Shown here piece after piece: positions 3,046-55,217 of a stretch of 64,000 bases of DNA; the stretch's first letter is position 1, and each line of letters begins with the position of its first letter. The translations under genes and the position numbers were made by a program. This DNA is from Candidatus Omnitrophota bacterium (GTDB lineage Bacteria > Omnitrophota > Gorgyraeia > Gygaellales > Profunditerraquicolaceae): contig JBHPGR010000002.1 of NCBI GenBank assembly GCA_042570405.1, positions 5,992 to 69,991 on the forward strand, in the 5' to 3' direction. Under the pieces are notes generated by a model, which had not been told where the DNA came from, ran no database searches, and saw only the letters and a list, made by a program, of their open reading frames with translations.

Positions 3046-4657
3046 AGAAATAATCTTCGGTATCATCGGAGGCCTGGGGCTGTTTATTTACGGCTTAAAG
3101 CAGATGAGCGACGGCCTGCATAAGGCAAGCGGCGAGAGGATGCGCCGCATCCTGCACGGGCTTACCGGAGGCCGTTTAAAGGGAGTGTTGGTCGGCACGG
3201 GTATCACCAGCGTAATCCAGTCTTCATCGGCGACAACCGTGATGGTGGTAGGGTTTGTCAACGCCGGACTGATGACCCTGGTGCAGGCATTAGGGGTGAT
3301 ATTGGGTGCCCACATCGGTACCACGATCACCGCCCAGTTGATCGCCTTTAAGCTTACGGATTACGCCCTGCCGATCATCGGCGTGGGGATGCTTTTGATG
3401 CTTATCGGTAGGAGAAAGACCCACAAATACGTCGGTGAATTCCTGCTCGGGTTTGGTATTTTGTTTCTCGGCTTAAGTATCCTGACTACGGTAGTCAAGC
3501 CTTTAGGTCAGTATCCACTCTTTACCGAGATTATGGTCTCTTTTAGCAGGAATCCGCTTTTGGGCGTACTTGCCGCAGCACTCGTTACCGCGGTAGTCCA
3601 GAGCAGCTCTGTGACCACCGGTATGGTGATAAGTCTTGCTATGGCAAATCTAATCGACCTGGGAGCTGCGATACCATTGATCTTTGGTTGTAATATCGGT
3701 ACCTGCGTTACAGCATTGATCGCTTCCATCGGGGTAAGTATCAACGCAAAGAGAGCAGCCTTTGCCCATATTATAATGCGGGTCATCGCGGTAGCTGTAT
3801 TTTTACCGTTTTTGTCTCCGTTTATCAGGCTGGTCAGTTCCACATCTGCCGAGCTACCGCGGCAGATCGCAAACGCCCATACCTTATTTAACGTGATCGC
3901 AACTCTGCTCTTTCTGCCCTTTGTGCGGGTATTCGCCGGATGGCTTACCAGGGTGATCAAAGGGGAAGAGGAGGAGGAGGTCGAGTATCTGCCGAAATAC
4001 CTGGAACCGCACCTATTGAATACTCCGCCTATAGCTATAGAGGCGGCGATCAAGGAGATCATCAGGGCCCTGGAATTGACCCGGAAGATGGTCAGCCTGG
4101 CAATGGAGAGCTTCTTTAAAAATGACCCAAGGGCTTTAGAAGGAGTAACCCGCAGGGAAGAGGCGGTGGATTCATTGAGAGAGGCGATCACCAAGTACCT
4201 GGTCGAGATCATGCAGAGGGAGTTAAGCGCCGATGAATCAAGGAAGATCCCCCCACTATTACATGCGATCAATGATGTGGAGAGGATCGGCGACCACGCC
4301 GAGAATTTAAGGGACCTGGCAGAGCAGAAGATCGAGAACCGCATGCCTTTTTCAAAGGAAGCCGCATCAGAGCTGGAGAAGATGTACGAGGATGTGATCA
4401 AGATGGCTAATTATTCTATCAGCGCGCTGGGGATCAATATCCAGGATGCAAAACTCGTCCTTGAGCAGGAGGCAGTGATCAACGATCTCAGAAACAGTTT
4501 AAAGGATAGCCACACCCGGCGCCTTGAGAAGGGGGATTGTAATGTCCTTTCCGGGGTAGTCTTTCTGGATATAATCAGCAACTTGGAGAAGATCGGCGAC
4601 CACCTCACCAACGTAGCCCAGGCAGTAATCGAGGGCCTGCAGTGGAACGGTAAGTAA
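3038..4657 (+). CDS. Na+/phosphate cotransporter family protein with C-terminal PhoU-like repeats
   Basis: 539 aa. It has a polytopic N-terminal half with duplicated QSSSATT/QSSSVTT Na/Pi-cotransporter motifs. The C-terminal half has two PhoU-like ERIGDHAEN / EKIGDHLTN repeats. Confidence 0.9.
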
Positions 4658-52638: not shown

Positions 52639-52839
52639 AGGCGTAAGTTATGTATGGAACTTTCCCGGCTCATAAGCCGCGGGAAAATTCTCTTTGATAA
52701 TTTTCCCGCATTCGCCGGGATTAATTCGCCCAGACAACTTACGTCACTAGCGTTCCGTAAGTTGTGGGCTCATTATCGCACTTATAACTTACTCACACTT
52801 TTAGTGTTCGTAAGTTATGTGCTCATTAAGGAGGTATTG
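52639..52839 (+). repeat. motif-dense structured pyrH-frr spacer (CGTAAGTTRT repeats in both orientations)
   Basis: Direct copies lie at 52642, 52756 and 52809, the last two extended to CGTAAGTTRTG(G)GCTCATTA. Inverted copies are ACAACTTACG (52734-52743) and ATAACTTAC (52784-52792). These give two strong hairpins, at 52734-52765 and 52784-52819. Confidence 0.6.
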
Positions 52840-53400
52840 ATGACTACCAAAGAGATCTTGCATACGGCTGAAGAAAAGATGAAGAAATCGCTGGAATCAG
52901 TAGCCCGCGAATATGCCGAGGTTCGTACAGGAAGGGCGCATCCGGGCTTAGTTGAAGGATTGCATGTAGATTATTACGGGACCCCGACCCTCTTTAAGCA
53001 GTTGGCCTCGATCTCAGTGCCGGATGCACATCTGATCGTGATCCAACCTTGGGATCCGAATGCGATCCCCGAGATGGAGAAGGCGATCATGAAGTCAAAT
53101 ATCGGGATCACGCCCTCCAACGACGGCAAGTTGATCCGCCTGGCTGTACCGCCATTATCCAAAGAGAGGCGGCAGGAGCTGGTGAAATTGGTGCATCAGA
53201 TGAGCGAGGAGGGGAGGATCTCGCTGCGCACGATCAGAAGAGATATCAAGGAGGCGCTGGAGAAGACAGAGAAAGAAAAGAAGATCTCAGAAGATGATAA
53301 ATTCCGCGGCGTTGATTCCCTGCAGAAGATCACTGATAAATACATCTTAAAAATAGAAGAGTTACTAAAGAGCAAAGAGAAGGAGATCCAGGAGTTTTAG
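52840..53400 (+). CDS. frr: ribosome recycling factor
   Basis: MTTKEILHTAEEKMKKSLE... matches the Frr N-terminus. AAGGAGG lies at 52828-52834. The 62-codon upstream extension in the ORF track is non-homologous and lies in the repeat region. Confidence 0.92.
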   Translation: MTTKEILHTAEEKMKKSLESVAREYAEVRTGRAHPGLVEGLHVDYYGTPTLFKQLASISVPDAHLIVIQPWDPNAIPEMEKAIMKSNIGITPSNDGKLIRLAVPPLSKERRQELVKLVHQMSEEGRISLRTIRRDIKEALEKTEKEKKISEDDKFRGVDSLQKITDKYILKIEELLKSKEKEIQEF

Positions 53401-53410
53401 GGCAATATTC

Positions 53411-54259
53411 ATGACAAAGAAATTAGAAGTAAAAATAATTAAAAGATCCAGAAAATTACGTACTAATGGCTTATCTTTTGGGGAAATCTCCTTTATTACA
53501 GGCGTACCAAGAAGCACGCTTTATGGTCACCTAAGAGATATATCCCTAACAGTTGAGCAGAGACATAATTTAGATATTAGAAATAGAGAACGAAATATGC
53601 ATAAGATAAATCCCCGAAAAGATAAATGTCTTGCGGGTAGAGAAATTGTAAAGCCTAGGGCGTGGTCAACTGATTTAGTTCATACTGTAGCTCATTTTAT
53701 GTTTGACGGCAGAGTAAGTGATGATTGTTGTATTTACTATAGTAACAGTAAGTACCAAATCAACCATATGAGAATGCTTTTGCATAAAATTTTTAATGCT
53801 GAACCTAAAGTTCATTCGAGAGATAATAACGTCTATGGGTTGGTTTTCTATCATGTCGAACTCGCTAATTATCTTAAGAAGCGTAAGAAGGAGCTAGTTG
53901 ATTACCTAAACAATGGTGCTTCACGAATGGAAAAGAGGGTATTTTTGAAGGCATTTTTTGACGACGAAGGGAACGTTTTTTATAAAGGTAGTACTCGGCG
54001 AGTACGAGGCTACCAACAATTATCTTCTGTACTGGAACAAATAAAAGATTTACTAAGGGATTTTAGAGTAGAGTGCAAAATTGATAAAAGCAATACCGAT
54101 ATTGAAATTACAGGTCAGAAAAATTTGTTAAACTTTAGCAAAGAGATAAACTTTTCTCCTAAAATCTATATTAACCATAGGAGAAAAAATGGAATTTGGA
54201 AGAAGAGGATTTCTAAGAGCAAGATTTTAGAAGCTTCATTGAAGTCTTATAAGAAATAG
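53411..54259 (+). CDS. free-standing LAGLIDADG-type homing-endonuclease-like protein with N-terminal HTH
   Basis: 282 aa. The second motif FLKAFFDDEGNV is canonical LAGLIDADG-like. A degenerate first motif VAHFMFDGRV lies about 85 aa upstream. The N-terminal LSFGEISFITGVPRSTLYGHL looks like an HTH. The ORF is visibly AT-rich relative to its neighbours. Confidence 0.6.
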   Translation: MTKKLEVKIIKRSRKLRTNGLSFGEISFITGVPRSTLYGHLRDISLTVEQRHNLDIRNRERNMHKINPRKDKCLAGREIVKPRAWSTDLVHTVAHFMFDGRVSDDCCIYYSNSKYQINHMRMLLHKIFNAEPKVHSRDNNVYGLVFYHVELANYLKKRKKELVDYLNNGASRMEKRVFLKAFFDDEGNVFYKGSTRRVRGYQQLSSVLEQIKDLLRDFRVECKIDKSNTDIEITGQKNLLNFSKEINFSPKIYINHRRKNGIWKKRISKSKILEASLKSYKK

Positions 54260-54306
54260 AGGTAAAGTAATTTCGTTCATTGATAATGAGTTAAAGAATT
54301 AATTCT

Positions 54307-54640
54307 GGGCCACTAGCTCATCCGGTAGAGCACCGCCCTCAGCCTAAGGGGGCGCTACTGGGAAACCAGTAGTAGTGAATCTTGTAAATTGCGGGGAAAT
54401 CTGGTGTATTTCAAGATACTCTGTGAATAGAGTAATAATTCTTGAATGCAGATAATCCGCAGCCAAGCCCTTTTTATCAGGAAGGTAAGGGAAGGTTCAA
54501 CGACTATAATCAAGATTCCCTTCATTTTTGAAATTAATAATAAATGGGGGAAATGGAATAGTCTGATCTGTATGGCGACATACAGCTAACACAAATGTTT
54601 AAGGCGGGTGTGCCGTGTTCGAGTCACGGGTGGCCCACCA
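54307..54640 (+). tRNA. tRNA-Lys(UUU) interrupted by a 258-nt group I intron in the anticodon loop
   Basis: The exons are 54307-54339 and 54598-54640. The acceptor is GGGCCAC/GTGGCCC, the D arm GCTC-ATCCGGTA-GAGC, the anticodon stem CCGCC/GGCGG, and the T arm CCGTG-TTCGAGT-CACGG, followed by A-CCA. The spliced anticodon loop is CU|UUUAA. Confidence 0.85.
54340..54597 (+). ncRNA. group I self-splicing intron (tRNA-type, IC3-like), no internal ORF
   Basis: Hand-folded in the canonical order. P1 is 54334-54339/54349-54354 with a U.G pair at the 5' splice site. P2 is 54355-54372 with a GAAA loop. P3 is AATCTTG/CAAGATT (54378/54511). J3/4 is TAAATT. P4 is GCGG/CCGC. P5 is ATCTG/CAGAT, followed by P5a and P5b. 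P6 is CCCTT/AAGGG. P7 is GACTA/TAGTC (54502/54559). P8 is present. P9 is CTGTATG-GCGA-CATACAG. The terminal G is at 54597. Confidence 0.85.
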
Positions 54641-54655
54641 AGTTTCAAGTTTCAA

Positions 54656-54831
54656 GGTTCGAGGCTCTCCCGCCGAAGGCGGGATAAGCTTTTGAGAGCC
54701 GAGAACCTAAAGAGAGGATTCTTAAGGAGAGAAGACCGTTCTCTCCTTAAGATTGCTGTTCTTTGATTGCTAAGGAAGGGGTGACCGCCCCGCAAAGCGG
54801 GGCACCAGAGGGGAAACCATATGGGTTTCCC
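54656..54831 (+). other. cluster of strong GC-rich hairpins between tRNA-Lys and tRNA-Leu (candidate structured RNA)
   Basis: H1 is 54656-54707 (GGTTC..GGCTCTC[CCCGCC-GAAG-GGCGGG]..GAGAGCC..GAACC). H2 is 54720-54752, a 14-bp perfect stem. H4 is 54787-54803 (GCCCCGC-AAA-GCGGGGC). H5 is 54811-54831 (GGGAAACC-ATAT-GGGTTTCCC). There is no ORF. Confidence 0.4.
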
Positions 54832-54930
54832 TATGGGGAGTGAGCGTCAGTAGATAGCGAGATAAGCATAGATACAGCTTTAAGCTTGATTTGTTTACTT
54901 GCAAGTACTGAACCAGCTATAGCGAACGAC

Positions 54931-55012
54931 GCGGACGTGGTGGAATTGGCAGACACGATAGCCTTAGGAGCTATTGGGGCAACCCTTGGGGGTTCAAATC
55001 CCTCCGTCCGCA
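54931..55012 (+). tRNA. tRNA-Leu(UAG)
   Basis: It folds by hand into an 82-nt cloverleaf. The acceptor is GCGGACG/CGTCCGC, the anticodon loop is CTTAGGA, the variable arm is long (TGGGGCAACCCTTG), and the T arm is GGGGG-TTCAAAT-CCCTC. CCA is not encoded. Confidence 0.93.

Positions 55013-55139: not shown

Positions 55140-55217
<78 letters not shown>

Follow-up and report, generated by a model that had tools for sequence, protein, structure and literature searches.

Is the short group I intron that splits a tRNA-Lys(UUU) gene in an Omnitrophota genome an isolated ribozyme, or is it one half of a mobile unit whose other half is encoded next door? The locus lies in a 64,000-nucleotide (nt) stretch of DNA from Candidatus Omnitrophota bacterium (assembly GCA_042570405.1, contig JBHPGR010000002.1; the whole stretch is called the window, and positions are counted from its first base), in which an intron without an open reading frame (ORF) sits just downstream of a gene for a LAGLIDADG homing endonuclease. 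Comparison with homologous loci (referred to by L numbers) makes it reasonably probable that the intron is an active ribozyme in a functional tRNA-Lys gene, and that it is paired with the neighbouring endonuclease in a mobile unit resembling those of collaborative homing. The original prediction for this stretch had described the split tRNA and its intron; the adjacent LAGLIDADG gene, which it did not mention, is more informative than the intron.

A tRNA-Lys(UUU) gene interrupted by a group I intron

The interrupted gene consists of three parts:

54307..54339, + strand: tRNA-Lys(UUU) exon 1, tRNA positions 1-33 (ARAGORN; covariation)
54340..54597, + strand: group I intron, ORF-less, 258 nt (Rfam, 92.5 bits; covariation)
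54598..54640, + strand: tRNA-Lys(UUU) exon 2, tRNA positions 34-76, with anticodon UUU and encoded CCA (ARAGORN; covariation)

With intron search, ARAGORN called tRNA-Lys(ttt) at 54307-54640 with a 258-nt intron at positions 33/34, and the joined segments 54307-54339 and 54598-54640 form a perfect 76-nt cloverleaf of tRNA-Lys(UUU) with discriminator A73 and an encoded CCA. Default ARAGORN missed the gene, finding in the window only tRNA-Leu(UAG) at 54931-55012 and tRNA-Gly(GCC) at 55140-55215. The Rfam Intron_gpI model (RF00028), proposed by the original prediction as a check, matches 54330-54585 over its full length (model positions 1-253) with 92.5 bits against a gathering score of 50 (E 1.9e-22), homologues scoring 59-102 bits. 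Its claim of a complete group I intron between U33 and U34 is therefore borne out, to the exact coordinates. Inside the intron (54340-54597) there is no ORF of more than 56 amino acids (aa), and a 27-nt probe (54313-54339, up to 3 mismatches) found no second copy of exon 1 in the 64-kb window.

The intron can be drawn with the following elements, all on the + strand:

54334-54339 with 54349-54354: P1, exon 1 CGCCCU with intron GGGGCG, with the U33.G wobble at the splice site
54345-54348: P10, guide UAAG with U34-U35-U36-A37, the first four bases of exon 2
54355-54372: P2, GAAA loop at 54362-54365
54378-54384 with 54511-54517: P3, pseudoknotted with P7
54390-54395 with 54456-54461: P4
54400-54403 with 54449-54452: P5
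54410-54416 with 54440-54446: P5a
54418-54433: P5b
54462-54463 with 54495-54496: P6
54468-54472 with 54487-54491: P6a
54502-54506 with 54559-54563: P7
54518-54522 with 54546-54550: P8
54568-54585: P9, GCGA loop at 54575-54578
54597: terminal G, closing a 12-nt tail

Through P10 the intron guide reads the anticodon itself (U34-U35-U36 with A37), and one guide aligns both exons. Folded alone, the intron is more stable than its shuffles (z = -5.4), and the fold reproduces P2, P4, P5, P5a, P5b, P8 and P9.

Covariation was assessed by mapping the structure by hand onto an alignment (A2) of the window and 11 further interrupted tRNA-Lys loci of Omnitrophota (12 sequences) and counting pairs, with partners slid by 1-3 columns and shuffles as controls. 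Standard pairs made up 94.7% of the pair cells, against 36-44% with slid partners, both sides had changed in a compensatory manner in 38 of 86 pairs, and no shuffle equalled the observed covariation. Compensatory pairs were found throughout P2 (7/7) and in P5a (6/7), P5b (3/5), P6a (4/5), P8 (3/4), P9 (4/7) and P3 (2/7), and P1 pair 30:47 switches from C-G to G-C in three sequences. The tRNA stems covary too, with 3/7 pairs in the acceptor and 4/5 in the T stem. P4 and P7 are invariant, as expected of the catalytic core, and hence yield no covariation signal; U33.G is present in 12/12 sequences, and the terminal G before TTTAAG never varies. Helices P1 to P9, the GAAA and GCGA loops and the terminal G, which the original prediction had drawn by hand from a single sequence, are all present and are backed by the covariation of 11 homologous introns.

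The ribozyme fold and the tRNA fold are thus both under selection across species, from which we infer that the intron is removed and the tRNA used. Given its covarying stems and the intron-less orthologues at the same locus, the interrupted gene is almost certainly functional, and if it is, the intron must therefore be removed. That 54307-54640 is a functional tRNA-Lys(UUU) gene whose group I intron is an active, splicing ribozyme we hold to be very probable. The intron would excise itself through two guanosine-initiated transesterifications, yielding a normal tRNA.

A free-standing LAGLIDADG endonuclease gene beside the tRNA

Upstream of the tRNA lie two genes:

52840..53400, + strand: frr (ribosome recycling factor), a conserved gene that anchors the locus on its upstream side (Pfam RRF; synteny in L001-L009, L095 and L232-L238)
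53411..54259, + strand: free-standing LAGLIDADG homing-endonuclease gene, 282 aa (Pfam, AlphaFold2 model, Foldseek)

The ATG of the endonuclease gene stands 10 nt past the frr stop, and its own stop is separated by 47 nt from the tRNA and by 80 nt from the intron insertion site. The product has an N-terminal helix-turn-helix followed by two LAGLIDADG motifs (..HFMFDG.. and ..FFDDEG..), it matches Pfam LAGLIDADG_3 (PF14528), as do 22/22 members of its family (best E 3.6e-14), and a 100% identical NCBI protein is annotated as LAGLIDADG family homing endonuclease of Candidatus Omnitrophota bacterium. An alignment (A1) of the 22 members, which come from two phyla and share 33-66% identity, shows H95, F98-D99-G100 and F182-F183-D185-E186-G187 to be invariant, including the catalytic acidic residues D99 (in FDG) and E186 (in FFDDEG). 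With the AlphaFold2 model (pLDDT 90.6), Foldseek matched I-DmoI (E 2e-7, TM 0.65-0.70), an intein endonuclease domain (E 1e-9), I-Tsp061I and PI-PfuI, and, more distantly, the bI3 maturase and WhiA. NCBIfam held no family for the protein, and a sequence-profile search of the PDB gave weak hits only. Judged by sequence and model, the product of 53411-54259 has the hallmarks of a LAGLIDADG endonuclease: two motifs, their catalytic acidic residues and a predicted two-domain alpha-beta-beta-alpha-beta-beta-alpha fold.

I-DmoI and other single-chain LAGLIDADG_3 enzymes of archaeal introns and inteins have the same two-domain fold, each motif contributing a single catalytic acidic residue; relative to I-DmoI, the window enzyme has ~14% identity and an extra ~65-residue N-terminal helix-turn-helix, and it is free-standing and bacterial. 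I-Ssp6803I resembles it in that a single tRNA species, interrupted at 33/34, supplies the anticodon region with which the enzyme is associated, but it is encoded inside its own intron and belongs to the PD-(D/E)XK family, whereas the window enzyme is a LAGLIDADG protein encoded outside the intron.

Linkage of the endonuclease family to tRNA-Lys(UUU) in two phyla

Scanning one genome per species with A1 returned 80 loci, in Omnitrophota and Patescibacteria. A tRNA-Lys(UUU) gene lies within ~125 nt of the endonuclease gene in 79/80 of them, the exception ending at a contig end, and the two genes are on the same strand in all of those loci but L049. The order in Omnitrophota (including some bins labelled Planctomycetia) is frr, endonuclease gene and tRNA-Lys with the 33/34 intron. 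In three Patescibacteria carriers the tRNA-Lys beside the endonuclease gene is itself interrupted, by an intron of ~200-244 nt that lies at 34/35 and hence one nucleotide off the window intron site:

L021 2675-2943: Patescibacteria 34/35 intron
L036 1413-1700: Patescibacteria 34/35 intron
L049 2558-2876, minus strand: Patescibacteria 34/35 intron, the tRNA lying on the opposite strand

The introns of L036 and L049 match Rfam Intron_gpI, and that of L021 resembles L036 by sequence. Whether the family is a free-standing LAGLIDADG lineage specialised on the tRNA-Lys(UUU) gene across two phyla, and forms a two-part mobile unit with the intron, is to our mind evenly balanced.

Some further features of the Patescibacteria loci were noted. 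Their endonuclease ATG follows the tRNA 3' end by 1 nt in L010 and L013 and lies within ~90 nt of it elsewhere (e.g. L010 4927-5822), which suggests that tRNA and endonuclease gene are co-transcribed, a nearly leaderless mRNA being freed by tRNA processing. Immediately upstream, L010 also repeats 16 nt of the tRNA 5' end; across 65 Patescibacteria loci we found no tRNA-fragment duplications of note. The three 34/35 introns resemble the IB2-labelled tRNA-Lys introns of Actinomycetota among the consulted entries of Table S5 of a recent survey (PMC13011429).

Three allelic states at one locus

The syntenic order is frr, tRNA-Lys, tRNA-Leu, tRNA-Gly. In the window, rpsB, tsf, pyrH and frr precede the interrupted tRNA, and PTS EIIA, a CofD-like gene, HPr and PtsI lie on its downstream side. 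Intron and endonuclease gene are both present in the window and in 11 other Omnitrophota loci. Four close relatives were sampled through frr alone (75-82% identity): a tRNA-Lys(UUU) with neither intron nor endonuclease gene occupies the same place in three (L232, L233 and L237/L238), and one (L235/L236) has the intron only. A metagenome scan with the P7'-P9 pattern of the intron added 37 intron-containing tRNA-Lys loci; where at least 900 nt of upstream sequence was available (n = 21) the endonuclease gene was present in 11 and absent in 10, and, with L166 and L173 (shorter upstream) included, 11 loci lack the endonuclease gene and have just 84-443 nt from frr to the interrupted tRNA. Alleles with neither element, with the intron alone and with both are thus all represented among Omnitrophota relatives; the rule that the endonuclease gene occurs only with the intron fails in Patescibacteria.

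The states are found in closely similar hosts. The exons of empty L233 are those of intron-containing L014 except for one T-stem pair, and in a neighbour-joining tree of frr, a single-gene tree without bootstrap, the states are interleaved, with L095 (both), L173 (intron only) and L233 (neither) as nearest neighbours and the window grouping with two empty alleles. A three-way DNA alignment resolves two clean, separate insertions ~80 nt apart: an 855-nt ORF-only block, from the frr stop to the conserved box TGTTCTTTGA, and the intron, between CACCACCCT and TTTAAGGTGG.

The intron was present in 12/12 Omnitrophota loci found via the endonuclease, against 1/4 of the endonuclease-less loci found via frr (Fisher one-sided p = 0.007, uncorrected for relatedness), and no Omnitrophota endonuclease gene without the intron was seen in the 12 endonuclease-found and 16 intron-found loci. 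One metagenome contig (L218 276-1477) holds a rearranged unit, with the endonuclease gene 3' of the interrupted tRNA-Lys and frr on the other strand. The frr ORF of the window, as listed (52654-53400), would encode 248 aa, against 186 aa in homologues, and Pfam matches it only from residue 85 onwards; translation probably begins at the ATG near 52840.

Truncated exon 1 copies between frr and the endonuclease gene

In L001/L015, L014, L017, L018 (the same as L007), L019, L033, L094 and L118 exon 1 is present twice, the additional copy standing downstream of frr and upstream of the endonuclease gene. This copy passes U33 into the anticodon sequence of an intron-less gene (TTTAAGG in L018, TTTA in L094, TTTAA in L014) and ends at about tRNA position 37-40, the endonuclease ATG following 10-30 nt further on. 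In L017 the first 33 bases of the copy are identical to the real exon and the following bases are decayed, as would be expected of gene conversion bounded by the end of homology at the intron. Many Logan contigs with the endonuclease gene alone measure 940-1000 bp, and L094 starts in one exon 1 copy and ends in the other, which indicates that assemblies break at the exon 1 repeat.

The exon-copy scar is a feature of Omnitrophota, and its form is what we would expect to be left over when an intron-less gene is broken near the insertion site and repaired by one-sided homology. The resident intron-less tRNA-Lys would be broken a few bases 3' of the insertion site, homology would serve for repair on the exon 2 side, and the other side would be joined non-homologously after synthesis through the intron, exon 1 and the endonuclease gene. 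Recombination between the two exon 1 copies would remove the endonuclease gene precisely, explaining intron-only alleles.

For L017, ARAGORN also proposed a 1.2-kb intron that uses the upstream exon 1 copy and so contains the endonuclease gene; we rejected this as the general arrangement, the copy being degenerate or absent in many carriers, including the window. Use of the upstream copy as an alternative 5' splice site is possible in L017 and L033.

Collaborative homing as a proposed explanation

Collaborative homing is known so far from two phage systems (PMC3984707), and a related trans-homing is carried out by T4 mobE (PMC2790892). The arrangement that it calls for, a free-standing endonuclease gene beside an ORF-less intron, is found in the window as well. 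The two phage systems are reportedly, in part according to PMC6083498, those of cyanophage S-PM2, with F-CphI and a psbA intron, and of phage Aeh1, with an nrdA intron. In the phages, as here, the endonuclease gene lies outside the ORF-less intron and adjoins it, the carrier intron interrupts the presumed target, and presence or absence is polymorphic among relatives. Unlike them, the present system has a cellular bacterium as host, a tRNA rather than a protein gene as the interrupted gene and a LAGLIDADG enzyme, and putative cleavage at the insertion site is read from a genomic scar.

Under such a scheme tRNA-Lys(UUU) genes without the intron would be cleaved by the endonuclease at a target in the anticodon loop or close to it, the intron would split the target site and so protect its carrier, and repair of the cut allele from the carrier would copy both the intron and the endonuclease gene, by co-conversion over ~80 nt. 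We lean towards a homing partnership of the intron and the upstream LAGLIDADG gene; likewise, the adjacent endonuclease and the three-state locus together are, if by a small degree, probably a variant of collaborative homing in a cellular bacterium and a tRNA gene.

Several observations weigh against this partnership. The endonuclease gene lies directly 3' of an intron-less tRNA-Lys(UUU) in 66 Patescibacteria loci (65 by ARAGORN, and L047, which ARAGORN miscalled), where protection must stem from sequence differences if the anticodon loop is the target, or else these enzymes have another target. The endonuclease diverges in step with frr (Spearman 0.64 over 91 pairs), a pattern that vertical residence over a long time would explain as well as repeated homing would. 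The exon 1 copies could all stem from one ancient event and have been kept similar by gene conversion, and the window is without such a copy.

Alternative explanations

It is also conceivable, but in our judgement unlikely, that the intron is active while both it and the LAGLIDADG gene are old vertical residents, the protein having been domesticated, as a maturase for this intron or a DNA- or RNA-binding factor for the tRNA-Lys locus, and no longer driving mobility. Such a history would suit a gene that keeps a fixed syntenic place, diverges in correlation with frr, retains an intact reading frame in two phyla, encodes an N-terminal helix-turn-helix and has LAGLIDADG maturases and the LAGLIDADG-derived regulator WhiA among its structural matches. 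However, the gene is missing from at least 11 syntenic loci that have the intron and is therefore unneeded for splicing there, most Patescibacteria carriers have no intron to help, and hosts that are almost identical differ in presence or absence, the states being interleaved. The two catalytic acidic residues are moreover invariant in the family; WhiA and pure maturases are not known to keep theirs in this way. A maturase role as the general function is unlikely because intron and gene each persist where the other is missing and the catalytic residues do not vary.

Rather improbable, too, is that intron and endonuclease are independent selfish neighbours, the endonuclease targeting its own empty site (the spacer that separates frr from the tRNA, or the 5' portion of the tRNA gene) and the intron moving or persisting alone. 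The two separate insertions ~80 nt apart, the many loci with the intron alone and the Patescibacteria gene at the 3' end of an intron-less tRNA would all be accommodated. What speaks against independent neighbours is that the Omnitrophota endonuclease was never seen without the intron (12/12 and 16 more loci), that the exon 1 copies break at about position 37-40 of an intron-less sequence, close to where the intron inserts rather than in the spacer, and that another intron lies one nucleotide away in three Patescibacteria carriers.

Finally, that the interrupted gene is dead and a second, intact tRNA-Lys(UUU) elsewhere does its work is very improbable: our view covers 64 kb of the genome, which leaves room for such a gene but lends it no direct support, and against it compensatory changes preserve the pairing of both the tRNA stems and the ribozyme helices across 12 species, the core of the ribozyme does not vary and the gene occupies the place of the relatives' intron-less tRNA-Lys(UUU) in the same tRNA cluster.

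Relation to known bacterial tRNA introns

A 2026 survey of 4,934 complete bacterial genomes recorded 333 tRNA group I introns, the usual sites being 33/34 in tRNA-fMet, 34/35 in tRNA-Leu and 36/37 in tRNA-Arg (PMC13011429). Two features that the original prediction had thought unusual are less so in this light: an insertion 5' of the wobble base is the standard tRNA-fMet site (PMC13011429), and among the consulted entries of Table S5 tRNA-Lys(TTT) is host to introns at 34/35, labelled IC3 or IB2, in four Actinomycetota (PMC13011429). The argument from rarity was overstated, the position being ordinary and a tRNA-Lys precedent lying one nucleotide away. The sole Omnitrophota entry in the consulted part of the table is a tRNA-fMet intron at 33/34, neither a tRNA-Lys intron at 33/34 nor any tRNA-Lys intron of Omnitrophota was found there, and within that scope the combination of host and site (tRNA-Lys(UUU), 33/34, Omnitrophota) sets the window intron apart from the survey introns (PMC13011429).

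The window intron itself belongs to a well-known kind. Bacterial anticodon-loop introns of tRNA-Leu(UAA), tRNA-fMet, tRNA-Arg, tRNA-Ile(CAU) and Actinomycetota tRNA-Lys are likewise short ORF-less ribozymes, and, as in the window intron, their P1 and P10 draw on bases of the anticodon stem-loop and their L2 and L9 are GNRA tetraloops. The original prediction had likened several strings to those of the Azoarcus and Anabaena tRNA introns: compared with the IC3-labelled introns among the consulted Table S5 entries (PMC13011429), AAATT-GGGGAA and GCCAAGC are indeed common to them, but ACGACTA is not, IC3 having AGAGACTA instead. Correspondingly, the J3/4-P4 and P6 strings of the window intron (AAATTGCGGGGAAA and AATCCGCAGCCAAG) are close to the same IC3-labelled entries, and its two GNRA loops fit IC3 as well, whereas its P7 (ACGACTA/TAGTCTG) differs from theirs (AGAGACTA/TAGTCC) (PMC13011429 Table S5), and its P5 carries an extra P5a-P5b arm, unlike IC3. 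An nhmmer profile of the intron run against 13 subgroup-labelled tRNA introns from the consulted part of that table gave no usable scores.

More distant relatives are numerous. The P7'-P9 module ATAGTCTGAYCTG-N4-GCGA-N4-CAG is common to at least 83 other group I introns (metagenome hits L112-L231): 83 of 120 hits to the pattern in metagenomes were related introns in 23S rRNA or protein genes, so that the pattern is less specific than hoped. Inspected by eye from their 3' flanks, some of these introns lie in 23S rRNA and others in apparent protein-coding genes, and in several P9 is extended at length. The tRNA-Lys intron is thus, by its sequence, a member of a large, widespread intron lineage. 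A phage origin was considered and rejected for lack of evidence: the 18-mer GGTTCAACGACTATAATC had 14 hits in viral contigs, none with a tRNA or the endonuclease, and these were unrelated group I introns sharing the core only.

Other features of the locus

One short element lies upstream of the tRNA:

54275..54287, + strand: conserved box GTTCATTGATAAT, 19 nt 5' of the tRNA start

The box is found in the frr/tRNA spacer of endonuclease-less alleles and in the spacer between endonuclease gene and tRNA of alleles with the endonuclease. It may be part of the tRNA promoter; a sigma-70 scan called no promoter for the tRNA or at the box.

Downstream, the 290-nt spacer between tRNA-Lys and tRNA-Leu in the window (54641-54930) is unusually structured, with a minimum free energy of -121 kcal/mol (z = -7.5) and four or five G+C-rich hairpins, of which that at 54720-54752 resembles a terminator. 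It has no Rfam match, and the corresponding spacers of relatives are very different in length and sequence. In L005/L020 (7438-9378), ~2.3 kb of extra DNA with three small ORFs separates the interrupted tRNA-Lys from tRNA-Leu, one ORF encoding a 97-aa GIY-YIG protein and thus adding a second endonuclease-like gene to the tRNA cluster. One Omnitrophota lineage (L007/L018 6281-8145) has the interrupted tRNA-Lys followed directly by Archease and RNA ligase RtcB, and then by seryl-tRNA synthetase. The anticodon nuclease PrrC cuts tRNA-Lys(UUU) between U33 and U34, the same bond as the intron site; the match may be a coincidence. About 200 nt 3' of the intact intron-less gene of L238 (~3400-3440) there is a partial copy of the tRNA-Lys 3' end, comprising T arm and acceptor strand (GCGTTCGAGTCGCAGGAGGCTCA), which looks like the footprint of a small insertion or integration event.

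Each 2-kb block of the window (1-64000) has a positive GC skew, and the ten annotated genes at 48.6-60 kb are all on the + strand, which suggests a single replichore arm with a strong gene-strand bias.

Implications for Omnitrophota and for tRNA introns

For Omnitrophota, the interrupted gene has a practical consequence: default tRNA finders miss it, so metagenome-assembled genomes of the phylum would seem to be without tRNA-Lys(UUU). The cycle of gain and loss can be seen in all three of its stages at a single locus of closely related genomes, a natural system in which to study the partnering of introns and endonucleases. The enzyme family is compact and single-chain, and it probably recognises a highly conserved tRNA gene sequence, which makes it a possible source of a new specificity for meganuclease engineering.

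The survey of bacterial tRNA introns concluded that most are without homing endonucleases and hence hardly mobile, having examined intron interiors only (PMC13011429); the likely endonuclease partner here lies just outside the intron, where that survey did not look. If the lineage is indeed specialised on tRNA-Lys(UUU) as proposed, it would represent the first two-part mobile unit of this sort from a cellular bacterium and the first to involve an RNA gene, and many bacterial tRNA introns regarded as endonuclease-less may have partners that are encoded outside the intron.

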